From: Acidimicrobiia bacterium
GTDB taxonomy: Bacteria > Actinomycetota > Acidimicrobiia > IMCC26256 > PALSA-610
Length of the DNA: 64,000 nucleotides
Assembly (NCBI GenBank): GCA_038213435.1
Contig: JBBQTI010000007.1
Location: 16,729 to 80,728, forward strand
Direction: 5' to 3'
Part shown: positions 25,634 through 46,813 of the stretch, in pieces
How the letters are laid out: every line of letters starts with the position of its first letter
How positions within the stretch are numbered: position 1 is the first letter of the stretch
Notes under the pieces: model-generated
Seen by the model: the letters and a program-made list of their open reading frames with translations, nothing else
Database searches by the model: none
What the model was told of the DNA's origin: nothing
Translations under genes and position numbers: made by a program

Positions 25634-26851
25634 GTGTCACCATGGGTCGTGGCCAACTCCCCGTCTCGAATCTCTGCCCGCATCGCCGCCATCCAGGAGT
25701 CCGCGACCCTCGCCGTCGACGCCAAGGCCAAGGCTCTGAAGGCTGCGGGCGAGAACGTCATCGGTTTCGGAGCCGGCGAGCCCGACTTCCCGACCCCCCG
25801 AAACGTGGTGGAGGCGGCGATCGCGGCGTGTCGTGAGCCCCGATACCACCACTATTCGCCGACACCGGGCCTGCCCGAGTTGCGCGAGGCGATCGCGTTC
25901 AAGACCAAGCGGGACTCCGGGGTCGATTGCTCGGCCGCGCAGGTCGTCGTGACGAACGGCGGGAAGCACGCCGTGTACAACACGTTCCAAGTCCTGTGCA
26001 ACGAAGGCGACGAGGTGTTGGTGCCGGCGCCGTACTGGACTTCCTACCCCGAGGTGATCACCCTCGCGGGCGGCGTGCCGGTTGTGCTTCCTACGTCGGA
26101 AGCCGACGGATTCCGCGTCGGAATCGATCAGCTGGAGGCGGCGTGGTCACCCCGCACCAAGGCGCTGTTGTTCGTCTCGCCGAGCAACCCGACCGGCGCG
26201 GTATACCCCTCCGAGGAGGTGGAAGCAATCGGCCGGTGGGCGCTCGATCGCGGCATCTGGGTCGTCACTGATGAGATCTACGAGCACCTGACCTACGACG
26301 GCCACGTGTTCTCGTCGATGCCGGGTCTGGTGCCCGAGCTCATGGATCGCTGCGTGATCCTGAACGGCGTCGCGAAAACGTATGCGATGACCGGCTGGCG
26401 CGTGGGCTGGATGATCGGCCCGCCCGACGTGACCGCCGCGGCGACCAACCTGCAGTCGCATTCGACCTCGAACGTGTCGAACGTCGCGCAGGTGGCCGCG
26501 CTCGCCGCGGTGAGCGGCGACCTGTCGGCCGTCGCCGAGATGCGGGGTGCATTCGCGCGACGCGGCCACACGATGTACGAGCTCTTGTCGAAGATCGAAG
26601 GTGTGAGCGTCCTCGCCCCGCAGGGCGCGTTCTATTGCTTTCCCTCCTTCGAAGCGGTGCTCGGGCGAGAGATCGCCGGCCGTACCCCGCAGACCACTCT
26701 CGAGCTGTGTGCGCTGCTGCTCGAGATCGCGAAGGTCGCGATCGTTCCGGGCGAGGCGTTCGGCGCGCCCGGCTACGCCCGGTTGTCGTTCGCGCTCGGC
26801 GACGACGACCTGGGTGTCGGGATGCGGCGGATCGCGGAGCTCCTGTCGTAA
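25634..26851 (+). CDS. pyridoxal-phosphate-dependent aminotransferase (aspartate aminotransferase class I)
   Basis: [62 protein letters not shown] (PLP Lys). The GTG start is uncertain: 25634 or 25649. Confidence 0.85.
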
Positions 26852-26889
26852 CTACTCGTCGGGACTACTCGTCGGGACTACTCGCAGGG
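26851..26889 (+). repeat. 13-bp tandem repeat x3 (ACTACTCGTCGGG, ACTACTCGTCGGG, ACTACTCGCAGGG)
   Basis: It starts on the last base of the aminotransferase TAA stop (26849-26851) and lies in the spacer before serA. Confidence 0.85.
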
Positions 26890-26946
26890 CTGCCCACCGC
26901 GGGAACGGCCCGTGAGCGACGTCGTCGCCGTCTACCCTCGGGGGCG

Positions 26947-28524
26947 ATGCCCGCGCGTGTTCTCGTCTCCGAACCCCTCGCCGAGCGCGGACTCGTCGCC
27001 ATGCGTACCGCCGGGCTCGACGTCGACGTGCGGACCGGTCTCTCCCGGGAGCAGCTGCTCGAAGCGGTCAAGGGCGCGCGGGCGCTCGTGATCCGCAGCG
27101 CGACCCAGGTCACGGCCGAAGTGCTCGAAGCGGCGACCGAACTCGTCGTCGTCGGGAGGGCGGGTATCGGACTCGACAACGTCGACGTCGTCGAGGCGAC
27201 ACGGCGAGGCGTGATGGTCGTCAACGCCCCCCAGTCCAACGTCCTGTCGGCGGCCGAGCACACGCTCGCGCTCCTCCTCGCGCAGGCGCGCAACGTCCCC
27301 CAGGCCAACGCCGACCTGAAGGCCGGTGCCTGGAACCGGTCGAAATGGGAAGGTGTCGAGCTGCACGGCAAGACGCTCGGCATCGTCGGTCTCGGACGCG
27401 TCGGTGTGCTCGTCGCACAACGCGCGCACTCGTTCGGCATGCGGCTCATCGCGTACGACCCGTTCGTCAGCTCGGATCGGGCGCGTCAGCTCGGCGTGGC
27501 GCTCCTTCCGACGGTCGAGGAGCTGGTGGCGATCTCCGACTTCGTTTCGATTCACGCCACGAAGACACCCGAGACGGTCGGGCTCATCAATGCGTCGGTG
27601 CTCGCCCACGCCAAGCCCGGCCTACGTCTCGTCAACGCGGGTCGCGGCGGCATCGTCGACGAGGACGCACTGGCGGCGGCCATCGCCGACGGCCGGCTCG
27701 GCGGCGCCGCGATCGACACGTTTGCAAAGGAACCGACCACCGAATCGCCGCTGTTCGCGCTGGACAACGTCGTCGTCACGCCGCACCTCGGCGCGTCGAC
27801 CGCCGAGGCCCAGGACAAGGCGGGGGAGACGATCGCGGAGCAGGTGATCCTCGCGTTGCGCGGCGACTTCGTGCCGTTCGCGGTCAACGTCGCCGCCTCC
27901 GAGGCCTCCGAGAGCGTGCGCCCGTTCCTGCCGCTGGCCGAGCGGCTCGGACGCCTGTTCACGGGTCTGGCCGGAGGCGCGCCCTCGACGCTCAATATCG
28001 AATACGAGGGCGAGATCGCCGACTACGACTGCCGCGTGCTCACCCTGTCGGTGTTGAAGGGCGTGCTCGCCCCCGTGGTCACGGAGCCGGTGTCGTACGT
28101 CAATGCTCCGCAGATCGCGGAACAACGCGGCATCTCGGTGCGTGAAACGAAGTCGTCCGACGCGCGCGATTACGTGAATCTCATCGTCGTTCGCGGCGAT
28201 CAGGGCACGCACGTCGCGGCAACACTGTTCGGCAAACACCAGGCGCCGCGCATCGTGGGGATCGACGGCCACCAGGTCGACCTACCGCCGGCGCGGCACA
28301 TGCTCGTCGTGCACAACGACGACAGCCCGGGCATGATCGGTCGCGTTGGCACGGTGCTCGGTGACGCCGGCATCAACATCTCGAACATGGACGTCGGGCA
28401 GAGCCCGAGCGGTGAGGCGGCGTTGATGGTGATCGCGACCGAAACGGCGGTAGCGGACAAGGTGGTCCAGCACGTGACGCGCCAGGAAGGCGTGCAGTCG
28501 GCTCGCGCCATTGATCTCGGTTGA
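26947..28524 (+). CDS. serA: D-3-phosphoglycerate dehydrogenase (long form with ASB and ACT domains)
   Basis: GRAGIGLDNVDV, GIVGLGRVG NAD motif, TPHLGAST, and a C-terminal ACT-like HNDDSPGMIGRVGTVLGDAGINI. Confidence 0.9.
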   Translation: MPARVLVSEPLAERGLVAMRTAGLDVDVRTGLSREQLLEAVKGARALVIRSATQVTAEVLEAATELVVVGRAGIGLDNVDVVEATRRGVMVVNAPQSNVLSAAEHTLALLLAQARNVPQANADLKAGAWNRSKWEGVELHGKTLGIVGLGRVGVLVAQRAHSFGMRLIAYDPFVSSDRARQLGVALLPTVEELVAISDFVSIHATKTPETVGLINASVLAHAKPGLRLVNAGRGGIVDEDALAAAIADGRLGGAAIDTFAKEPTTESPLFALDNVVVTPHLGASTAEAQDKAGETIAEQVILALRGDFVPFAVNVAASEASESVRPFLPLAERLGRLFTGLAGGAPSTLNIEYEGEIADYDCRVLTLSVLKGVLAPVVTEPVSYVNAPQIAEQRGISVRETKSSDARDYVNLIVVRGDQGTHVAATLFGKHQAPRIVGIDGHQVDLPPARHMLVVHNDDSPGMIGRVGTVLGDAGINISNMDVGQSPSGEAALMVIATETAVADKVVQHVTRQEGVQSARAIDLG

Positions 28525-28973: not shown

Positions 28974-29041
28974 GCGCGGGCCGGTGGCTGCCGACCGAAG
29001 GTTTGACGAACGCGATCGACGCTGGCACACTGGAGCGACTT

Positions 29042-29095
29042 ATGCGCAAGGAGACAACGGCTTCCGCAGCTCTGCTGGTCCTCCTCCTTATGTAG
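29042..29095 (+). CDS. leucine-rich leader peptide (MRKETTASAALLVLLLM) of the leuA attenuator
   Basis: ATG 29042 with GGAG 6 nt upstream. 17 codons, with 5 Leu among the last 7 sense codons (CTG CTG GTC CTC CTC CTT), then a TAG stop. It is followed by hairpins and a U-tract terminator before leuA. Confidence 0.65.
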   Translation: MRKETTASAALLVLLLM

Positions 29096-29125
29096 GCGCG
29101 AGCGCCCGTTGGTGCTCGCGCTCGA

Positions 29126-29155
29126 CCCTCCGTGCCGACCGGCCGGAGGGTTTTT
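29126..29155 (+). terminator. intrinsic terminator (attenuator) between the leader peptide and leuA
   Basis: CCCTCCG...CGGAGGG stem (29126-29150) followed by TTTTT (29151-29155). A preceding 8-bp hairpin GCGCGAGC/GCTCGCGC lies at 29096-29121. Confidence 0.65.
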
Positions 29156-29207
29156 CGTTGCAGCAACGGGCCGGGTATCCCGGCCCGCAGAGAGCGAGTG
29201 AAGAGTT

Positions 29208-30749
29208 ATGGACACGGTCAGGATCTTCGATACGACCCTTCGAGACGGCGAGCAGTCGCCCGGTATCTCGCTCGACGTCACCGAGAAGCTCGAGATCGCC
29301 GACCAGCTCGCCCGGCTCGGCGTGGACGTGATCGAAGCCGGCTTCCCGATCGCGTCCGATGGCGATTTCGAGTCGGTCGAGGCCATCGCCAAGGCAGTGA
29401 AGGGGCCGATCATCACCGCCCTCTCGCGCACCGGCTTCAAAGATGTCGACCGGGCGTGGGAGGCGGTTCGCCACGCCGTGAAGCCGCGCATCCACGTGTT
29501 CATCGCGACGTCGAAGATTCACATGGAAAAGAAGCTCCGCATGACTCCCGAGCAGGTGAAGCACGAGGCCGGGGCGGCGGTGGCGCGGGCCAAGGGTTAC
29601 GTCGTCGACGTGGAGTTCTCGCCCGAGGACGGGTACCGCTCCGATCCCGTCTTCATGTGCGAGGTGTGCCAGATCGCGGTCGACAACGGCGCGACGACGC
29701 TGAACATCCCCGACACCGTCGGCTTCGCGGTACCGGAGGACTACGGGCAGTTGATCAAGTACGTCATCGAGACCGTGCGGGGCGATTTCATCGTCTCGAC
29801 GCACTGCCACAACGATCTCGGCCTGGCGGTCGCGAACTCGCTCGCCGGCGTCTCGAACGGCGCGCGTCAGGTCGAGTGCGCGGTCAATGGGCTCGGCGAG
29901 CGTGCGGGCAACGCCGCGCTCGAAGAGGTCGTGATGGCGATCCGGACCCGGCGCGACTACTTCGACGCGGTCGACGTGAACGTTCGCACGGAGGAGCTGG
30001 CCCGTACCTCGCGCATGGTCGCGCGTCTGACCGGCTACCACGTGCAGTACAACAAGGCCGTCGTCGGTCGCAACGCGTTCGCGCACGAAGCCGGCATTCA
30101 TCAGCATGGTGTGCTTGCAGACCGTGAGACGTACGAGATCATCGACGCTTCGACGGTCGGCCAGGAAGCGGCGCAGATCGTGCTCGGCAAGCACTCGGGT
30201 CGCCACGCGTTTGCCGACACGCTCGAGAAGATGGGAATTCACGTGCAGGGCGACGCGCTGAACAGCGCGTTCGTGCGCTTCAAGGAGCTCGCCGACAAGA
30301 AGGTCGCGATCACGGACGCCGATCTCGAGGCGATCATCGCGGAGGAGATCGGGAGCGGCAAGGTACATCGTTACGGCTTGCACGAGCTCGAGGTTCGCGG
30401 CGGCACCAGCACCCCACCGTCCGCCCGAGTGGTGCTCACCGATGCCGACGGCAAGATCGAAGCCGGCGGCACTGGAGACGGCATGATCGACGCCGCGATC
30501 GCGGCCATCGGCGAGGCGACGGGCGTGCAGGGCGTTCTCGGCAACTTCCAGGTCTCGTCGGTGACAGGTGGCGCCGACGCGCTGGGCGCGGTGACGGTGA
30601 CCGTCGACGCGGAAGGGCGCAAAGTGACGGGTCGGGGCGTCGCGACCGACGTCGTCGAAGCCTCTGCGCGCGCGTACCTCAACGCGGTCAACAAGCTCGT
30701 ACGCCTGCGCGGCCGCGACGAGGTCCGCGAGAGCACTGTCGGCCCCTGA
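29208..30749 (+). CDS. leuA: 2-isopropylmalate synthase
   Basis: MDTVRIFDTTLRDGEQSPG, HCHNDLGLAVANSLA, and a C-terminal LeuA-dimer regulatory domain. 513 aa. Confidence 0.9.
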   Translation: MDTVRIFDTTLRDGEQSPGISLDVTEKLEIADQLARLGVDVIEAGFPIASDGDFESVEAIAKAVKGPIITALSRTGFKDVDRAWEAVRHAVKPRIHVFIATSKIHMEKKLRMTPEQVKHEAGAAVARAKGYVVDVEFSPEDGYRSDPVFMCEVCQIAVDNGATTLNIPDTVGFAVPEDYGQLIKYVIETVRGDFIVSTHCHNDLGLAVANSLAGVSNGARQVECAVNGLGERAGNAALEEVVMAIRTRRDYFDAVDVNVRTEELARTSRMVARLTGYHVQYNKAVVGRNAFAHEAGIHQHGVLADRETYEIIDASTVGQEAAQIVLGKHSGRHAFADTLEKMGIHVQGDALNSAFVRFKELADKKVAITDADLEAIIAEEIGSGKVHRYGLHELEVRGGTSTPPSARVVLTDADGKIEAGGTGDGMIDAAIAAIGEATGVQGVLGNFQVSSVTGGADALGAVTVTVDAEGRKVTGRGVATDVVEASARAYLNAVNKLVRLRGRDEVRESTVGP

Positions 30750-35096: not shown

Positions 35097-36869
35097 GTGC
35101 GACTCGGAATCGACAGCGGCGGGACGTTCACCGACGTCGTCGCCGCCGACGGTCGGGTCGCCAAGGTCGCGTCGACACCGGAGGATCCGGCGCGAGCGGT
35201 CGAACGGGCGGTCGATGCCGTCGACGGCCGGGGTCGGGTCGACGTGCTTGCCCACGGCACGACGGTCGCCACCAACGCCCTGCTGGAGCGGCGGGGCGCC
35301 CGGGTCGCGCTGATCGCCACGCGTGGCTTCGTCGACGAGATCGAGATCGCGCGGCAGGTCAGGCCCTCGCTCTACGACCCCTTCGTCGACCGGCCGCAAC
35401 CGCTCGTGCCGCGCGCGCTGCGGTTCGAGGTCTCCGGTCGCCTCGACGCGCGCGGCGTCGAGATCGAGCCCTTCGACGGTGCACTGCCCGAGATCGTCGA
35501 CGAGATCGACTCGATCGCCGTGTGTCTGCTGCACTCCGATCTCGACGCCCGGCTCGAGCGCGAGGTCGCCGACGCGTTACGCGCCGCACGGTCTGAGCTC
35601 GTCGTGTGTTCGCACGAGGTCAGTCCGGAGTTCCGCGAATACGAACGCATGGTTACGACGGTCGTCGAAGCATTCCTCGAGCCCGCGTGCGCGCCGTATC
35701 TGATGCAGCTCGCGGCGTTCGCGTCCGAAGCCCTGGTCATGACCTCGGCGGGCGGACTTGTGCCGGTGAACGGTGGCGCGCGCGCGGCGGCGTCGTTGCT
35801 GCTGTCGGGACCCGCCGGCGGCGTGCGCGCCGCAGCTGAGGTCGCGGCCGCATGTGGCTTCGCCGACGCGGTGAGCTTCGACATGGGCGGGACGAGCACC
35901 GACGTATGCCTCGTGCGCGGTCGCGTGCCCGAACCGACCTCCGAGCGCGTCGTCGCGGGCTTCCCGATCCGGCTGCCGGCGCTCGACGTGCACACCGTCG
36001 GCGCCGGGGGTGGCTCGATCGCCCGGCTCGACGCCGGGGGAGCCCTGGTCGTCGGCCCTCGCAGCGCCGGAGCAGTACCCGGGCCTGCATGCTACGGCCG
36101 CGGCGGCACCGACCCCACGGTCACCGATGCCGATCTCGCGCTCGGCCGTATCCCGGCCGGCTCGGCCTTCCCGGATCTCGGTCGGCTCGACGGGGCCGCG
36201 GCTCGGCGCGCGCTCGAGCGAGCGGGAGTCACCGCCGAAGGAGTCGTGCGCGTTGTCGACGCGGCGATGGAACGCGCAGTGCGCGCCGTGACCGTCGAGC
36301 GCGGTGTCGATCCGACGGAGCTCGTGCTCGTCGCATTCGGAGGCGCCGGACCGTTGCATGCCTGCGCGATCGCCGACGCGCTCGGGATGCGTGCGGTCGT
36401 TGTGCCGCCGCGCGCCGGCGTGTGCTCGGCCGCGGGTCTTTTGTGCGCACCGAAGGCTCGCGAGGTGGTTCACACCTTCCGCGGCGGATCACTGGCCGGT
36501 GCACTCACGCGCGTCGAACGCGAAGCGCGCTCCCGGGTGGGAGCGGACGCGATCGTCGAGACCGCGGTCGACTGTCGCTACGTCGGCCAGAGTCACGAGT
36601 TGACGGTGGCCTCTCCCGATGAATTCCCGGCGGAGCACGAGAGGCGCAACGGCCACGTTCGTCCGGGCGCCCCGATCGAGGTGATCGCAGTGCGGGCGCG
36701 CGCGTCGATCGCTGCTCCGTTGCGCATCACCGATCTGCCCGATGTCGACCGGCGCCGAGTGATCGGCCCTGCGGTCGTGGCCGAAGCCGACTGCACGGTG
36801 TGGGTTCCGGAAGGCTGGCGGGCCGAGCCGGCAGAGCTGGGGGCGTGGATCGTCCGCGGGGGAGGGTAG
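35097..36869 (+). CDS. hyuA: hydantoinase/oxoprolinase family protein, A subunit
   Basis: N-terminal [27 protein letters not shown], and a later DMGGTSTDV motif. 590 aa. Confidence 0.85.
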
Positions 36870-36871
36870 CG

Positions 36872-38410
36872 ATGGATCCGGCGTCGCTTCAGGTGTGGAT
36901 CTCACGGCTCGCGGCCGTGGCCGACGAGATGGGCGCGGTGTTGCGGCGGGCCGCGTACAGCCCCAACATCAAGGAGCGCGCCGACTGCTCGTGTGCGGTG
37001 TTCACCGCCGACGGCACGCTGCTCGCACAAGCCGAGCACATCCCCGTGCACCTCGGCTCCATGCCCGCCGCGGTCCGCGCCGCGATCGACTCGTGTGGCG
37101 AGGGTCTCCGTCCCGGCGATCAGATCGTCGTCAACGATCCGTTCGCCGGCGGGACGCATCTCAACGACATCACGTTCGTCGCGCCCGCGCACGCCGACGG
37201 CGGAGCGCTGATCGGATGGGCGGCGAACCGCGCGCACCACGCGGACGTCGGTGGGATGGCTCCCGGCTCGTTGCCGCCCGACGCGACGGAGATATTCCAG
37301 GAAGGGCTGCGAATCCCGCCCGTACGTTGGACGCGGGAGGTCGAGGCTCTCGTCGTCGCCGCGTCGCGCACGCCCGACGAACGGCGCGGCGATCTCGACG
37401 CGCAGCTGGGCGCGAACCGATTGGGCATCGCCAGGCTGCGCGAGCTCATGCCCGTGCCGGAGCTACTCGCCGAGATCGTGGAATACGGCGAACGGCGCAT
37501 GCGCGCCGCGATCGACGCCCTTCCCGATGGTGAGTATCGGTTCGACGACGTGCTCGACTCGACGGGCGGACCGGGCGACGCGCGATCGGCGCGTATCTGC
37601 GTGAAGGTCACCGTGCTGGGCGACACGATCACCTTCGACTTCGCGGGTACCGACGCGCAACGCGCGGGGTCGGTCAATGCGGTAGAGGCCGTGACCGTGA
37701 GCGCGGTGGCGTTTGCGCTGCGCTCGGTCGTCGATCCCGATCTCCCGGCGAACGGCGGCGTGTTTCGTCCGGTGCGGGTGATCACACCCCCGGGCTCGAT
37801 CGTGTCCGCGCGGATGCCCGTCGCGGTCGGCGCCGGCAACGTCGAGGTGAGCCAGCGGGTCGCCGATGTGTGCCTGGGCGCGCTCGCGCAGGCGGCGCCG
37901 GATCGCGTCGGCGGCGCGTCGCAAGGAACGATGAACAACCTTCTCGTGGGCGGCGAGGGCTGGGTGTATTACGAGACGATCGGTGGCGGCCAGGGCGGAC
38001 GGCCGGACGGGAGCGCGGGGATGAACGGCGTGCACACCGCGATGACGAACACGCGCGACACGCCGGTCGAAGCGTTCGAACGCGCGTTCCCGATGCGCGT
38101 CCGCCGTTACGCGTTGAGGACGAACAGCGGCGGCGCCGGGCTCGCCGCCGGAGGTGACGGCATCGTCCGAGAGCTCGAGATGCTCGAGGACGCGACCCTC
38201 TCGCTGATCACCGAGCGGCGAACGTCTCGCCCGTGGGGCATCGCGGGGGGCGAGCCGGGCGCCGCCGGCGAGAATTGGTTGCTTGTCGGCGGTGAGGCGG
38301 CCCGAGCGCAGCGGCTCGCCGACAAGTGCACGGTGCGATTGCAGCGCGGCGACGTCGTTCGGATACTGACGCCGGGTGGCGGCGGGTTCGGTCGGCCCGC
38401 GTACACCTGA
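36872..38410 (+). CDS. hyuB: hydantoinase B/oxoprolinase family protein
   Basis: [21 protein letters not shown]..., [27 protein letters not shown]-type motif ([17 protein letters not shown]). It starts 2 nt after the hyuA stop. Confidence 0.85.
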
Positions 38411-38441: not shown

Positions 38442-38915
38442 CTAATCGGGTAGCCGCACCGCGACGACGGTGACCGACATCTCGCGCTTTGGACCTTGAT
38501 ACGTCACTGTCGCGTCGGGTGCCTTGCCGAGGAGGGCCTGGCCGAGCGGCGAGTTCGTCGACAAGACGTCGTACTTCTCGTGTCGTTCCTCGATGGAGCC
38601 GACGAGATAGGTCACGAGATCGTCGTCGTCCTCGTATCGAAGGTCGACGAGCGTGCCCGGCTCCACCACGTCACCGGCAGCGCTGGAGTCGATCACGATC
38701 GCGTTCTTGAGCATCGCTTCGAGTTGGCGGACGCGAGCCTCGTTGTGACCCTGCTCGTTCTTCGCCGCGTCGTAATCGGCGTTCTCGGAGATGTCACCGT
38801 GCTCACGGGCTCGCTCGATCCACAGAGAGAGCTCGCGCCGGCGCGTCGTCGTCCGTTCTTCCAATTCTGCCTTCAGCCGCGCGTAGGCTTGGGGCGAGAG
38901 GTGGGGCTCGCTCAT
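38442..38915 (-). CDS. greA: transcription elongation factor GreA
   Basis: LSPQAYARLKAELEE...HGDISENADYDAAKNEQG...SPLGQALLGK. 157 aa from ATG 38915. Confidence 0.9.
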   Translation of the reverse strand: MSEPHLSPQAYARLKAELEERTTTRRRELSLWIERAREHGDISENADYDAAKNEQGHNEARVRQLEAMLKNAIVIDSSAAGDVVEPGTLVDLRYEDDDDLVTYLVGSIEERHEKYDVLSTNSPLGQALLGKAPDATVTYQGPKREMSVTVVAVRLPD

Positions 38916-39008
38916 GACGGGCAGGGTAGTTCGGTCCCTCGGCCGAATCCGGCGACGGGGCACTTTTTCGCGCGCGGCGCGGAGCGTTGCCTGCGACGGG
39001 GAGCGGTG

Positions 39009-39089
39009 ATGTGGTTTGACATTGTTGTGATCTGCTGCGATCCTGGTGCCTTCATGCCCGTGCACCTCTCGGTCATCGTCATTCGATAA
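39009..39089 (+). CDS. Ile/Val-rich leader peptide ([26 protein letters not shown]) of an attenuator upstream of leuB-ilvE-cimA
   Basis: ATG 39009 with GGGGAG 5 nt upstream. 26 codons containing DIVVI and LSVIVI runs, then TAA. The region is locally AT-richer than its surroundings. It is followed by two hairpins, the second with a U6 tract. An in-frame internal ATG at 39054 would give [11 protein letters not shown]. Confidence 0.55.
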
Positions 39090-39117
39090 GCGAGCGCCGC
39101 CCCGGCGTTCGCATCAG

Positions 39118-39145
39118 CCGTCCACGCCTGCGTGGGCGGTTTTTT
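39118..39145 (+). terminator. intrinsic terminator (attenuator) 33 nt upstream of leuB
   Basis: CCGTCCACG-CCTG-CGTGGGCGG 9-bp stem (39118-39139) followed by TTTTTT (39140-39145). A preceding 9-bp hairpin lies at 39090-39112. No gene ends here, so this is not a 3'-end terminator. Confidence 0.65.
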
Positions 39146-39178
39146 CGTGAGCGCACCGAATCGGAAAGGACAGAGCCC

Positions 39179-40171
39179 GTGGCCCATCGGGTCGGGATCA
39201 TCGGCGGCGACGGTATCGGCCCCGAGGTCGTGCGCGTAGCCCTCAACGTCGTGCGCGCCGCGGGCGTCGAGCTCGACCAAGTCGAGTACGACCTCGGCGG
39301 TCGCCGTTACCTGGCGACCGGCGAGGTGCTCCCCGATGCCGTGCTCGATGAGCTGCGCGGGCTCGACGCGATCCTGCTCGGTGCCGTCGGGACGCCCGAG
39401 GTTCCGCCGGGTGTGCTCGAGCGTGGCCTGTTGTTGAAGATGCGTTTCGCGCTCGACCTCTATGTGAACCTGCGACCGTTCAAGGCCGGGCCCGGCCGAC
39501 ACAACGACGGTGTCGACTTCCTCGTGGTACGTGAGAACACCGAAGGAGCATACGCGGGTGAGGGTGGGTTCCTGCGCCAAGGCACGCCGCACGAGATCGC
39601 GACGCAGGGCTCCGTGAACACGCGCGCGGGCGTCGAACGTTGCGTGCGGTTTGCGTTCGAGCTTGCCCGATCACGCGATCGCAAGCACCTCACACTCGTG
39701 CACAAGACGAATGTGCTCACCTTCGCCGGTGACCTGTGGCAACGCACGTTCGACGATGTCGCTCGTTCGTTCGACGATGTGGGTACGGCCTACAACCATG
39801 TCGACGCGGCGTGCATCTACTTCGTGCAGGATCCCGGGCGCTACGACGTGATCGTCACCGACAACCTGTTCGGCGACATCCTCACCGACCTGGGCGGCGC
39901 GATCGGTGGTGGCATCGGTCGGGCGGCGTCGGCGAACCTCAACCCGGCCCGGACCGGCCCATCGCTCTTCGAACCGGTCCACGGCTCCGCTCCCGACATC
40001 GCGGGCACGGGGCAGGCCGACCCTCGGGCCGCCGTGATCTCGGCCGCCATGATGTGTGATTTCCTGGGCGAGGGCGACGCAGTGGCCCGAATTCAAAAGG
40101 CTCTGGACACAACCGACGATATAAAAGGCACGACCACGCAGATCGGCGATGCGATCGCCGCCGCCTGCTGA
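39179..40171 (+). CDS. leuB: 3-isopropylmalate dehydrogenase
   Basis: [40 protein letters not shown] motifs. 330 aa, short actinobacterial type. Confidence 0.9.
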
Positions 40172-40212: not shown

Positions 40213-41127
40213 ATGCCCATCACGCCGACTGAGAAGATCTGGATGAACGGTGAGCTCATCCCGTGGGCCGACGCGCGGATGCACGTCCTCACGCACTCCT
40301 TGCATTACGGCACCGGAGTCTTCGAAGGCATCCGCGCGTACGAGACGAAGCGGGGCCCGGCGGTGTTCCGGCTCACCGAGCACGTCGTGCGGCTGTTCGA
40401 CTCCGCCAAGATCATGATGATGGAGATCCCCTACACGGTTGATGAGATCGTGCAGGCGACAAAGGACACCGTGCGCTCTACAGGACTCTCGTCGTGCTAC
40501 GTCCGGCCGATCGCGTACTACGGCTACGGCGAGATGGGGCTCAACACCCTGCCGTGTCCGGTCGACGTCGCGATCGCGTGTTGGCCGTGGGGCGCCTACC
40601 TCGGTGACGATGCCGTCACCAAGGGCGTGCGCATGAAGATCTCGAGCTGGACACGCCACGATCACAACACGATGCCGCCGCTGTCGAAGACGACCGGCAA
40701 TTACGTGAACTCGTCGCTCGCGAAGGTCGAAGCGCTCAAGGCCGGTTACGACGAGGCGATCATGCTCAACCCGGATGGGCTCGTGTCCGAGTGCACCGGC
40801 GAGAACATCTTCGCGGCGCGGCGCGGCGTGCTCGTCACGCCTCCGACCTCGGCGGGCGCGCTGCCCGGAATCACGCAGGACTCGGCGATGACGATCGCAC
40901 GCGACCACGGTTTCGAGGTTCGTGTCGACGACCTGTCACGTAGCGACCTCTACGTCGCGGAGGAAATGTTCGTGTGCGGCACCGCGGCCGAGGTCAGCGC
41001 GGTGAACTCCGTCGACGACCGCACGATCCCGTGCCCGGGCCCGATGACCGGGACGATCGCGGCCGAGTACGCCAAAGCCGTGCGCGGCCAGATCGACAAG
41101 TACAAAGACTGGTGCGAGCTCGTATGA
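40213..41127 (+). CDS. ilvE: branched-chain amino acid aminotransferase
   Basis: IWMNGELIPWADARMHVLTHSLHYGTGVFEGIRAY, plus SKTTGNYVNS (PLP Lys region) and ECTGENIF. Confidence 0.9.
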   Translation: MPITPTEKIWMNGELIPWADARMHVLTHSLHYGTGVFEGIRAYETKRGPAVFRLTEHVVRLFDSAKIMMMEIPYTVDEIVQATKDTVRSTGLSSCYVRPIAYYGYGEMGLNTLPCPVDVAIACWPWGAYLGDDAVTKGVRMKISSWTRHDHNTMPPLSKTTGNYVNSSLAKVEALKAGYDEAIMLNPDGLVSECTGENIFAARRGVLVTPPTSAGALPGITQDSAMTIARDHGFEVRVDDLSRSDLYVAEEMFVCGTAAEVSAVNSVDDRTIPCPGPMTGTIAAEYAKAVRGQIDKYKDWCELV

Positions 41128-42725
41128 GGATTGAAATCTACGACACCACTCTTCGGGACGGGTCGCAGCTCGAAGGGATCTCGCTCACGGTCGAGGACAA
41201 GCTGCGGATCGCGGAACAACTCGACTGGCTCGGTGTGCACTACATCGAGGCCGGTTGGCCCGGTGCGAACCCGAAGGACGACGAGCTGTTCCGCCGTGTT
41301 CCGAACGAGCTGAGGCTTGAGACGAGCACACTCGTCGCGTTCGGATCGACCCGCCGGGTCAAGGGAAGGGTCGACAGCGACGACACGTTGCGACATCTCG
41401 TCGAGGCCAACGTCGCGACCGTGTGCATCGTCGGCAAGTCGTGGGACTACCACGTCACCGAGGCGCTGGGAACGACGCTCGACGAGGGCGTGGCGATGGT
41501 CGGCGATTCGGTCGAGTTCCTGCGTCGCTCGGGGATGAAGGTGCTCTTCGACGCCGAACACTTCTTCGACGGTTTCAAGCGCAATCCCGAGTTCTCGCTG
41601 CGTGTGCTCGAAGCCGCGGCGACGAAGGGTGCGAGCCATCTCGTTCTCTGCGACACGAACGGCGGTGCGCTGCCACACGAAGTTGAGCAGGCCGTCGCCG
41701 AGGTCGTCCGTTACTTCGGCCCCGACGTGACGATCGCGGTACATGCTCACGACGACGCGGGCACCGGCGTCGCGAACGCGTTGGCCGGCGTGCGCGGCGG
41801 TGCGACGCAGGTGCAGGGCACGATCAACGGCTACGGCGAGCGCACCGGCAACTGCAACCTCACGACGATCATCCCGAATCTCACCCTCAAGATGGGGTAC
41901 GAGACCATCCCGCGCGATCGGCTCGAGCGGCTCACACCGGTCGCGCACCACGTCGCAGAGCTCGTGAACATGCCGCTCAACCCGCAGGCCGCCTACGTGG
42001 GCCATTCGGCGTTCGCGCACAAGGCCGGGCTGCACACGAGCGCGATCGCGAAACGGCCGGACGCGTATGAGCACGTATCTCCCGAGATCGTGGGCAATGG
42101 CACGCGATTCGTCGTGTCGGAGCTCGCGGGCAAGTCGACGCTCGGGCTCAAGGCGAAAGAGCTCGGTCTCCGGCTCGACGGCCCGCAGCTCGCCGAGGTC
42201 GTCGAGACGTTGAAGCGACTGGAGCACGAGGGTTACCACTTCGAGGTCGCCGACGGCTCGCTGGAGTTACTGATGCGGCGCGCCACCGGCTGGGATCCGG
42301 ACTGGTTCCAGGTCGAGTCGTTCCGGGTGATCACCGACGACAACGTTGGTGTCGGCACGCTCACCGACAAGACGCGGGCGACGGTGATGACGGAGGCGAC
42401 GGTCAAGGTCCACATCGGCGGACGGCGAGTCGTGGCGACCGCCGAGGGCAACGGTCCGGTCAACGCGCTCGACTGCGCGCTCCGAACCGCGCTCGACGGC
42501 AGCTTCCCCGCGCTCGAGCGGTTACACCTCACCGACTACAAGGTCCGCGTGCTCGATACGAACAAGGGCACCGGCGCCGCGACGCGGGTGTTGATCGATT
42601 CCACCGACGGCGAGGCCACCTGGACGACCATCGGTGTGAACGAGAACATCATCGAGGCCTCGTGGCAGGCCCTTCTCGACTCGATCCATTTCGGTCTGCT
42701 GCGCGCCGAGGTGGCCGGTCGCTGA
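41124..42725 (+). CDS. cimA: citramalate synthase (LeuA-family, CimA type)
   Basis: MRIEIYDTTLRDGSQLEGISLTVEDKLRIAEQLD, HAHDDAGTGVANALAGV, GTINGYGERTGNCNL, plus a C-terminal LeuA-dimer domain. The start overlaps the ilvE stop (ATGA). Confidence 0.8.
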   Translation: MRIEIYDTTLRDGSQLEGISLTVEDKLRIAEQLDWLGVHYIEAGWPGANPKDDELFRRVPNELRLETSTLVAFGSTRRVKGRVDSDDTLRHLVEANVATVCIVGKSWDYHVTEALGTTLDEGVAMVGDSVEFLRRSGMKVLFDAEHFFDGFKRNPEFSLRVLEAAATKGASHLVLCDTNGGALPHEVEQAVAEVVRYFGPDVTIAVHAHDDAGTGVANALAGVRGGATQVQGTINGYGERTGNCNLTTIIPNLTLKMGYETIPRDRLERLTPVAHHVAELVNMPLNPQAAYVGHSAFAHKAGLHTSAIAKRPDAYEHVSPEIVGNGTRFVVSELAGKSTLGLKAKELGLRLDGPQLAEVVETLKRLEHEGYHFEVADGSLELLMRRATGWDPDWFQVESFRVITDDNVGVGTLTDKTRATVMTEATVKVHIGGRRVVATAEGNGPVNALDCALRTALDGSFPALERLHLTDYKVRVLDTNKGTGAATRVLIDSTDGEATWTTIGVNENIIEASWQALLDSIHFGLLRAEVAGR

Positions 42726-45961: not shown

Positions 45962-46665
45962 GGCTCGCCCTCAAGATCTCGCGGCGCGTCGCCATCGCGC
46001 TGTTCGCCGTCGGGCTCGCGTATCTGTCCGTCGTGTTCGTGCAGGTGTGGTTGGCGGCGCGCCGGGACGACGCCCGTCCGTCCGACGCGATCATCGTGCT
46101 CGGGGCAGCACAGTTCGACGGTCGTGCGTCGAAGATCCTCTCGGCGCGGCTCGATCACGCCGTCGACCTGTACCGCCGCGGTATCGCGCCCGTCGTCGTC
46201 GTGACGGGCGGCCGGCAACCGGGCGACCGCTTCACGGAGGCGAGCGTCGGTGCGAGCTATCTGCACGATCACCAGGTCCCCGAGCGCGCGATCCTGCGTG
46301 AGACGACCGGTCGGTCGTCGTGGCAGTCGCTCGCCGCGGCTGCACGCTTCCTGAAGGAGCGCCACCTCACGCGCGTCGTGCTCGTCTCCGATCCGTACCA
46401 TTCGGCGCGCGTCGAAGACGTCGCGCACGACGTCGGGTTGCAAGGGGCGACGTCGCCCACCCGCACGAGCCCGATCAAGGGCGCGGGCGAATGGCGGCGG
46501 TTCGGCACCGAGACCATCCGTGTCGCCGCCGGGCGCATCTTCGGCTACGGCCGACTCGACCGGCATCGCGAGGTCGAGAGGCTCGTACCGGGACTCGCTA
46601 CACTGTGCCCTCCGTTGCGGCGGCCGGAGCGGCGTCGCAAGGGCACCCATTCGGGGGTGGTGTAA
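45958..46665 (+). CDS. YdcF/ElyC (DUF218) family protein
   Basis: The GTG overlaps the gltX stop (GTGA). TM anchor IALFAVGLAYLSVVFVQVWL, then AIIVLGAAQ...VVVTGG...VLVSDPYH. The last 15 nt, including the stop, overlap the 5' end of tRNA-Gln. Confidence 0.7.
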   Translation: MRLALKISRRVAIALFAVGLAYLSVVFVQVWLAARRDDARPSDAIIVLGAAQFDGRASKILSARLDHAVDLYRRGIAPVVVVTGGRQPGDRFTEASVGASYLHDHQVPERAILRETTGRSSWQSLAAAARFLKERHLTRVVLVSDPYHSARVEDVAHDVGLQGATSPTRTSPIKGAGEWRRFGTETIRVAAGRIFGYGRLDRHREVERLVPGLATLCPPLRRPERRRKGTHSGVV

Positions 46666-46722
46666 TCGGCAACACGACAGGTTCTGGCCCTGTTATTGGG
46701 GGTTCGAGTCCTCCCCCCCGAG
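46651..46722 (+). tRNA. tRNA-Gln (anticodon CTG)
   Basis: Hand-folded cloverleaf: acceptor TCGGGGG/CCCCCGA, anticodon stem ACAGG/CCTGT with loop TTCTGGC, T-arm GGGGG-TTCGAGT-CCTCC. No encoded CCA. Confidence 0.85.
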
Positions 46723-46737
46723 CGCAGCCGGAGACAT

Positions 46738-46813
46738 GCCCCGTTCGTCTAGCGGCCCAGGACGCCAGGTTCTCATCCTGGTAACACGGGTTCAAATCCC
46801 GTACGGGGTGCCA
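46738..46813 (+). tRNA. tRNA-Glu (anticodon CTC)
   Basis: Acceptor GCCCCGT/ACGGGGT, anticodon stem CCAGG/CCTGG with loop TTCTCAT, T-arm ACGGG-TTCAAAT-CCCGT. CCA is encoded. Confidence 0.85.

Follow-up and report, generated by a model that had tools for sequence, protein, structure and literature searches.

Why should a short open reading frame (ORF) that ends in isoleucine and valine codons, followed by two hairpins and a run of T, stand in front of leuB, in a spacer where no gene terminates? The question is raised by a 64,000-nucleotide (nt) stretch of the genome of an uncultured Acidimicrobiia bacterium (assembly GCA_038213435.1, contig JBBQTI010000007.1, positions 16,729 to 80,728), hereafter the window, in which such an element lies between the divergent genes greA and leuB, at the head of leuB, ilvE and cimA. 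A sequence-only reading of this spacer had proposed an attenuator of the three genes that responds to branched-chain amino acids (BCAA) and is built on a 26-codon leader with a Shine-Dalgarno (SD) sequence; the comparative evidence strongly favors its core idea, while the anatomy that it gave to the leader is wrong. The element ahead of leuB is very probably real, an attenuator of familiar type that senses amino acids and has so far not been described. The explanation favored here is that of a leader-peptide attenuator sensing isoleucine and valine, which would tie the expression of leuB-ilvE-cimA to charged transfer RNA (tRNA) for isoleucine and, in the clade of the window, also for valine, and to both of these statements we assign a probability of roughly 0.8.

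Conservation of the leader and its two hairpins

The predicted leader in the window is an ORF of 11 codons and a TAA stop (39054-39089; features lie on the forward strand, in the numbering of the window, unless stated otherwise), which has no SD, stands 89 nt ahead of leuB and contains 2 Ile, 3 Val and 1 Leu, including the putative regulatory run GTC ATC GTC ATT (V-I-V-I, 39072-83), with the final Ile two codons ahead of the stop. Two hairpins follow directly after the TAA, as the sequence-only reading had stated: hairpin A (GCGAGCGCCG-CCC-CGGCGTTCGC, 39090-39112; 10 bp with a 3-nt loop, about -17 kcal/mol) and the terminator-like hairpin T (AGCCGTCCACG-CCTG-CGTGGGCGGTT, 39116-39141; 11 pairs, 7 of them G-C, in the pattern scan), with a T6 tract (39140-45) that continues as TTTTTTCGTG. 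It was also correct that, greA being divergent, no gene ends at this terminator or elsewhere in the spacer. A terminator pattern scan of 1.2 kb returns 3 sites against 0.9 expected, and the fold of the entire region 38990-39185 is uninformative (z = -1.2).

Across 80 leuB loci of the Acidimicrobiia, with one genome per species, a covariance model (R1) built from 34 copies identifies the element in 61, including the cimA-proximal copies and that of locus L039, all missed by an initial regular-expression motif search, and matches the window copy with E = 8.7e-19. The element stands directly ahead of leuB in 34 of these 61 loci and further downstream in the other 27, where cimA is the next gene in all 25 cases with sequence beyond the element; a pattern scan of metagenomes adds 8 copies, all of them heading leuB-ilvE-cimA. 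The resulting alignment of 69 copies (80-locus set and metagenome contigs), to which the counts below refer unless another sample is given, displays a common order of motifs, namely Ile/Val codons, one further codon, the stop, hairpin A, a short spacer, hairpin T and a T-rich tail, and a short ORF ending in an Ile/Val run is kept in all 69 elements.

Both hairpins are supported by this alignment: 96.8% of cells hold standard pairs and 15 of 20 pairs show compensatory change, a level of pairing and covariation that none of 500 column shuffles reaches, and slid controls pair in 33-50%. All nine model pairs of hairpin A covary, and hairpin T, paired in 97% of cells, shows compensatory change in 6 of its 11 pairs, with covarying outer pairs, four invariant core pairs and a fifth core pair that varies on one side only (U-G or C-G). 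Over the segment that begins with the stop codon and closes with T, the minimum free energy (MFE) structure consists of exactly hairpins A and T in 69/69 copies, with mean free energies (ΔG) of -18.0±2.5 and -17.3±2.0 kcal/mol, respectively, and the 10 nt after hairpin T contain 5.8 T on average. Sequence and covariation show an RNA that folds, after the stop codon, into two independent hairpins followed by a U tract.

The core of hairpin T, CCG(U/C)CC/GGGCGG (39118-39123/39133-39138 in the window), is fixed in the 69 copies, 40 of which have the U-G wobble, in contrast to the freely covarying hairpin A. This invariance looks like a sequence-specific constraint, for which a pause signal, a protein- or DNA-level site, or strong selection beside the U tract are candidates.

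Immediately upstream of the 11-codon ORF lies a putative promoter, composed of a -35 box TTGACA (39016-21), a TTGAC-type hexamer at a fixed distance (-38) from the start of the short ORF, and, after a 17-nt spacer, of the -10-like hexamer GATCCT (39039-44), a motif match ending 9 nt before ATG 39054; the predicted transcription start site (TSS) falls at about 39051-54, giving a 5' untranslated region of 0-3 nt. A match of at least 5/6 to TTGACA together with NANNNT ending 5-10 nt before an in-frame start is present in 36/69 copies, as compared with 9/4048 (0.2%) random ATG/GTG sites of the same loci. Given that the leader has no SD and that the promoter abuts ATG 39054, its translation would be SD-independent, most probably from a leaderless or near-leaderless messenger RNA (mRNA).

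This arrangement bears on the longer frame of the sequence-only reading, according to which an SD-dependent 26-codon leader starting at ATG 39009, with two Ile/Val clusters, would be the sensor. Such a frame is indeed open in the window (GGGGAG at 38998-39003, N5, ATG 39009, read through to TAA 39087-89), but, among relatives at 90-93% LeuB identity, the ATG and the SD are kept in L004 only, the start being absent from L001 and L002 and the frame of L003 being interrupted by an in-frame TGA. Homologous leader ORFs of more distant copies have 10-25 codons overall, and 10-16 in most leuB-proximal copies, with N-termini that are unrelated between clades. As for the two clusters, the terminal run is real and conserved, whereas the codons of the other, read as DIVVI, overlap the conserved -35 hexamer at its fixed distance from ATG 39054; moreover, the predicted TSS lies 3' of ATG 39009, which would therefore be off the transcript if that promoter is used. 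What is conserved upstream of leuB is the 11-codon ORF with its Ile/Val run and not the 26-codon frame as a unit, and it is hardly credible that the latter acts as the sensing ORF.

A different situation is met in Ilumatobacteraceae-like genomes (L023, L035-L037, L045, L047, L070 and others), which have a very short greA-leuB spacer. The stretch of some 40-50 nt upstream of leuB holds a conserved TACGAT box that resembles a -10 element, with roughly 9 nt between it and the leuB ATG, which suggests that leuB mRNA in these genomes may be leaderless and without attenuator.

Codon runs and the genes that they precede

Leader positions -5 to -2 are Ile or Val, and the composition of the run differs according to the genes downstream: copies heading leuB-ilvE-cimA (n=43) have on average 2.23 Ile and 1.56 Val in their final six residues, as opposed to 3.77 Ile and 0.19 Val in copies heading cimA only (n=26), which typically end A-I-I-I-I-R-stop. 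The Ile codons of the runs are ATC and ATT only, and Val codons occur where ilvE and leuB are co-regulated. The cimA-proximal copies, found in 27 genomes (L015-L017, L019, L021, L024-L027, L031, L035, L037, L038, L040, L043, L044, L047-L049, L054, L059, L062, L064, L067, L070, L072 and L079; for example L064:5593-5669), carry their own promoter and a slightly different terminator (AGCCGCCC...GGGCGGCU), and the attenuator seems to travel together with cimA. In the citramalate route to isoleucine, cimA followed by leuCD and then leuB leads to 2-oxobutyrate. The element would thus be primarily an Ile sensor linked to cimA and to this route.

Leucine is not a regulatory residue of the leuB-proximal element, contrary to the multi-BCAA sensing that had been suggested for it, and its control resides on a separate element ahead of leuA. 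A second, weaker R1 match in the window (29078-29161, E = 2.6e-5) precedes leuA (29208-30749, starting at ATG 29208; NF002086, 709 bits vs cut-off 532) and, together with a comparison of leuA loci, indicates a paralogous Leu-type element (29003-29155). It comprises a putative promoter (-35 TTGACG 29003-08, -10 CACACT 29026-31), the leader ORF MRKETTASAALLVLLLM with its stop (29042-29095), a hairpin A (29096-29121) and a terminator T (29125-29151) followed by T5. All nine leuA loci inspected (window, L150 and L201-L207) carry this Leu-type element, with leaders ending LLGLLL-[M/S/T]-stop (GLLL-T-stop in L150), then hairpin A, a 1-3-nt spacer, the terminator and U5; its T core, CCCUCC/GGAGGG, is different from that of the Ile type, and the geometry is alike. 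Codons 3-4 of Leu-type leaders (29048-29053 in the window; L201-L207) keep AAGGA(G/C/U) at the nucleotide level, a motif complementary to the Leu codons CUCCUU and in part to the terminator 5' arm CCCUCC, which may serve for intra-leader pairing or as an SD-like pause site. The ORF upstream of the leuA element (26635-28524) is a phosphoglycerate dehydrogenase gene (serA).

A codon run that changes with the downstream gene, in leaders whose N-termini are unrelated, provides the strongest argument that these ORFs act as codon sensors and not as peptides. The same evidence bears on the idea of a stand-alone small gene, encoding a hydrophobic micropeptide or a small RNA and closed by a constitutive terminator, with leuB or cimA transcribed independently. 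An own promoter and terminator, and the fact that T always forms thermodynamically, are what such a gene would have. However, the peptide is kept only in the codon run, which shifts from Ile/Val to pure Ile to Leu with the downstream gene; the element shares in every case the strand of leuB, cimA or leuA, 19-150 nt ahead of the gene, and has moved along with cimA; and in some copies the distance from T to the gene is so short that there is no space for a second promoter. A stand-alone gene is accordingly very improbable.

The invariant core of hairpin T in the 69 copies, beside a freely covarying hairpin A, and the failure to find an RNA antiterminator would also be in line with a trans-acting factor, be it an RNA-binding protein, an uncharged tRNA or a DNA-binding protein, that reads CCG(U/C)C...GGGCGG, the short ORF being auxiliary. 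Yet the leuB-proximal and leuA elements reach the gathering score of no Rfam model, and even at E<=1 their matches are by chance only (Hrs13 and the Lst thermometer, 18 bits each), without any T-box, leader or riboswitch. In addition, the Leu-type core is different while the geometry is unchanged, and such a factor would account neither for the runs of cognate codons nor for the constant distance that separates them from hairpin A, so that a trans-acting reader appears improbable. A T-box-like tRNA sensor in particular was rejected, there being no Rfam match and the UGGG in the 3' arm of T (T3) being unfit for the A73 discriminator.

Within the window, the genes that the leuB-proximal element would control are those named in the sequence-only reading, all with NCBIfam matches above curated cut-offs. 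The first is leuB, encoding 3-isopropylmalate dehydrogenase (39179-40171; NF002898, 489 bits vs cut-off 393), which starts with GTG 39179 and is preceded by the SD-like GGAAAGGA (39163-70); it is followed by ilvE, encoding a branched-chain amino acid transaminase (40213-41127; NF005146, 415 bits vs cut-off 279), and by cimA, encoding citramalate synthase (41124-42725; TIGR00977, 672 bits vs cut-off 450). The cimA ATG and the ilvE stop overlap (ATGA, 41124-41127), and the two genes are probably translationally coupled in the window; this overlap leaves no space there for the internal attenuator found ahead of cimA in other genomes. On the other side of the 263-nt spacer, which lies in high-G+C DNA, greA (38442-38915, reverse strand) also has an NCBIfam match above the curated cut-off. 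The best leuB relatives are metagenome-assembled genomes (MAGs) that carry the label Acidimicrobiia or Actinomycetota.

The interval from the leuA region to greA contains two long ORFs (35097-38410, forward strand), the second of which (36800-38410) bears a weak resemblance, far under curated cut-offs, to caprolactamase beta and acetophenone carboxylase subunits (hydantoinase B-type). Two adjacent tRNA genes (46651-46722 and 46738-46810, forward strand) are the sole Rfam matches above the gathering score in the window.

From ribosome position to terminator

A hint of how a stalled ribosome could act on hairpin T comes from the geometry around the stop codon, which is unusually strict. The final Ile is at -2, i.e., two codons ahead of the stop, in 67/69 elements, a cognate residue is never found at -1 (0/69 for Ile, 0/9 for Leu), hairpin A starts at nt 2 or 3 of the stop codon (+1/+2) in 64/69 and at +3 in the window copy, and the spacer between hairpins A and T measures 0-6 nt. 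For scale, the helicase of the ribosome is some 11 nt away from the first nucleotide of the P site, and structures that stimulate frameshifting stand 5-9 nt past the A-site codon.

In the attenuator favored here, transcription would start no more than about 3 nt from ATG 39054, driven by TTGACA-17-GATCCT, as the motifs indicate, and the 11-codon ORF would be translated without an SD, like other actinobacterial leader peptides. Hairpin T would terminate by default, including when the leader is untranslated or translated fast, which is plausible because T is in the MFE structure whichever part of the leader is masked, and a ribosome waiting at the V-I-V-I codons would cause readthrough into leuB. 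For the step in between, a steric or tethering relay without any antiterminator RNA can be envisaged, in which hairpin A reports whether the ribosome is stalled or finished. As long as the last Ile codon occupies the A site, the entry channel of the ribosome would reach only the first pair of A, which would stay folded, judging from the helicase and frameshift-spacer distances given above. The parked ribosome, the folded hairpin A and the 0-6-nt spacer would then place the ribosome too near RNA polymerase for T to fold in the exit channel, since with both hairpins folded the entry site of the ribosome and that channel would be no more than 0-6 nt and the width of a helix apart; alternatively, polymerase would stay effectively coupled. 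Hairpin A would thereby serve as ruler and bumper. Once it is on the stop codon, by contrast, the ribosome would unwind most of the 5' arm of A and be released, and termination would ensue. Such a relay would explain the fixed -2 position, the absence of cognate codons at -1, the stop inside the A stem and the short spacer, as well as the apparent avoidance of pairing between the 3' arm of A (A3) and the 5' arm of T (T5) and between leader and T5; it is offered tentatively, as a possibility and not as the probable answer.

The classical attenuator with 1:2, 2:3 and 3:4 pairings provides another way to link stalling and termination. Here, a stalled ribosome would cover the 5' arm of A (A5), and the freed A3 (39103-12) would pair, as the antiterminator, with T5 and the top of T, while fast translation and release would let A, then T, form. 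This is the standard precedent for leader-peptide attenuators (PMC11857589, PMC13236596), and the polarity of the arms is suitable, the G-rich A3 adjoining the C-rich T5 in all copies. On the assumption made in PMC13236596, that a ribosome occludes +/-13 nt to either side of its A-site codon, most of A5 would be covered when stalling occurs at Ile(-2). With A5 masked in the window and its closest relatives, an A3:T5 hairpin of -7.9 kcal/mol is predicted at the nucleation end of T (in the window, in a truncated-transcript fold without T3, GGCGU 39104-08 pairs with ACGCC 39124-28), and Leu-type copies reach -7 to -9 kcal/mol. However, T belongs to the MFE structure under each mask, the A3:T5 pairing amounts to just -2 to -5 kcal/mol in many copies, the cognate codon is never at -1, which would be the best spot for disrupting A, and A3 would be freed equally by a ribosome that has reached the stop codon, so that very fast release is required. 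The A3:T5 pairing also fares worse than shuffled controls, as detailed below, and overall we regard the classical scheme as unlikely, although not so remote as the other rivals.

The alternative pairings called for by an attenuator of this kind were searched for by masked folds and shuffle tests, and none was found. This and several further observations weigh against the attenuator favored here. Constrained folds with five ribosome masks detected no antiterminator mutually exclusive with T, which was in the MFE structure every time. The A3:T5 pairing spans -2 to -10 kcal/mol across the family and is weaker than with shuffled A3 (mean -5.5 vs -6.8 kcal/mol in 69 copies; median empirical p 0.76, with p<0.1 in 3/69 copies), and a 42-copy test likewise gave no enrichment over shuffles and, if anything, depletion. 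Complementarity between the 5' part of the leader and T5 is depleted as well (0/57 copies at p<0.1). The -10 hexamers match weakly, as with GATCCT in the window; Val is found at -1 in five leuB-type leaders, which weakens the rule of no regulatory codon at -1 if Val is sensed; and the TSS, the translation of the leader, termination at T and the response to Ile are all inferred. As for the steric relay, we know of no precedent for it.

Two further mechanisms were considered. Pairing of the 5' part of the leader with T3 shows a mild enrichment (11/57 copies at p<0.1), but it was rejected as a mechanism, since T5 lies next to T3 and would not plausibly be outcompeted. The other is frameshifting at hungry codons, by which ribosomes would pass through A and T. 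The Ile runs are not slippery, and the frame test is uninformative, the three frames being open across T in 60, 62 and 65 of 68 copies (about 90%), which speaks neither for nor against a frameshift or readthrough route.

Comparison with known attenuators

Among known systems, the ilvBNC attenuator of Corynebacterium glutamicum (IlvL, MTIIRLVVVTARRLP) resembles the window element in being actinobacterial, with a promoter abutting the leader ORF and no SD (PMC11857589), and in having a short ORF with a BCAA run, hairpins, an intrinsic terminator and control over BCAA biosynthesis genes. Its TSS lies 1 nt before the start codon, and both start-codon and Val-to-Ala mutants lose regulation (PMC11857589). 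It differs in its 292-nt leader with three overlapping hairpins (anti-antiterminator, antiterminator and terminator), as opposed to about 95 nt, two non-overlapping hairpins and no detectable antiterminator in the window family, and in the genes regulated, which are ilvBNC in C. glutamicum and leuB-ilvE-cimA or cimA in the window family. The two share no sequence similarity, and only in the window family is the run fixed two codons ahead of the stop.

A parallel in read-out comes from the upstream ORF of Mycobacterium tuberculosis ilvB1NC, which, like the leaders described here, has a short BCAA run (LVVI) near its stop and a Rho-independent terminator upstream of the structural gene, and for which the position of the ribosome, stalled at the run or on the stop codon, is the proposed signal (PMC13236596). 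Replacing LVVI by AAAA abolishes induction (PMC13236596), so that this attenuator is backed by experiment, and the window family by comparative sequence evidence. Furthermore, the M. tuberculosis hairpin beside the stop is an antiterminator overlapping the terminator, while hairpin A shares no nucleotides with T. If the antiterminator is truly absent, the window family would offer a compact system, of about 95 nt, for studying how ribosome position alone controls an intrinsic terminator.

Leaderless leaders with cognate codons are known from Streptomyces lividans, where all eight leader peptides are leaderless; those of ilvL, leuL1/2, trpL1/2, thrL, alaL and metL have 12-29 amino acids, and hairpins with a U stretch stand behind several of them (PMC8079986). 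These belong to another class of Actinomycetota, none stands ahead of leuB or cimA, and their runs are not fixed beside the stop. The enterobacterial trp, his, leu, ilvGMEDA and thr attenuators share the principle of sensing charged tRNA through stalling on a cognate run, with an intrinsic terminator as output, but, unlike in the window family, their leader ORF is preceded by an SD and their 2:3 antiterminator is well defined and conserved. With regard to leucine, the LEU element ahead of leuA in other Actinobacteria (Seliverstov et al. 2005, PMC1262725) has, like the leuA copy of the window, a Leu run CUC CUC complementary to GGAG. The LEU element, however, forms a pseudoknot, at the base stem of which the Leu codons pair with the SD of leuA, and has no terminator (PMC1262725), as opposed to the hairpin A, the U-tract terminator and the GGAG motif within the leader ORF of the window copy. 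The failure to find an antiterminator in the window family echoes Seliverstov et al.

The element is widespread in Acidimicrobiia, which are mostly uncultured soil, freshwater and marine actinobacteria, and its covariance model could better the annotation of MAGs. Leu codons ahead of leuA, Ile codons ahead of cimA and Ile plus Val codons ahead of leuB-ilvE-cimA form a natural codon-swap series with the run as sensor, through which a threonine-independent pathway to isoleucine would be tied to the charging of tRNA-Ile. A search of the full-text literature for attenuators of cimA or citramalate synthase, or in Acidimicrobiia, returned nothing relevant, and the remark in the sequence-only reading that no attenuator on leuB was known holds for that literature and for Rfam. 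The element would join the actinobacterial leaderless leader-peptide attenuators as a member undescribed in both, and would be, within the searched literature, the first leader-peptide attenuator found on cimA and on leuB.

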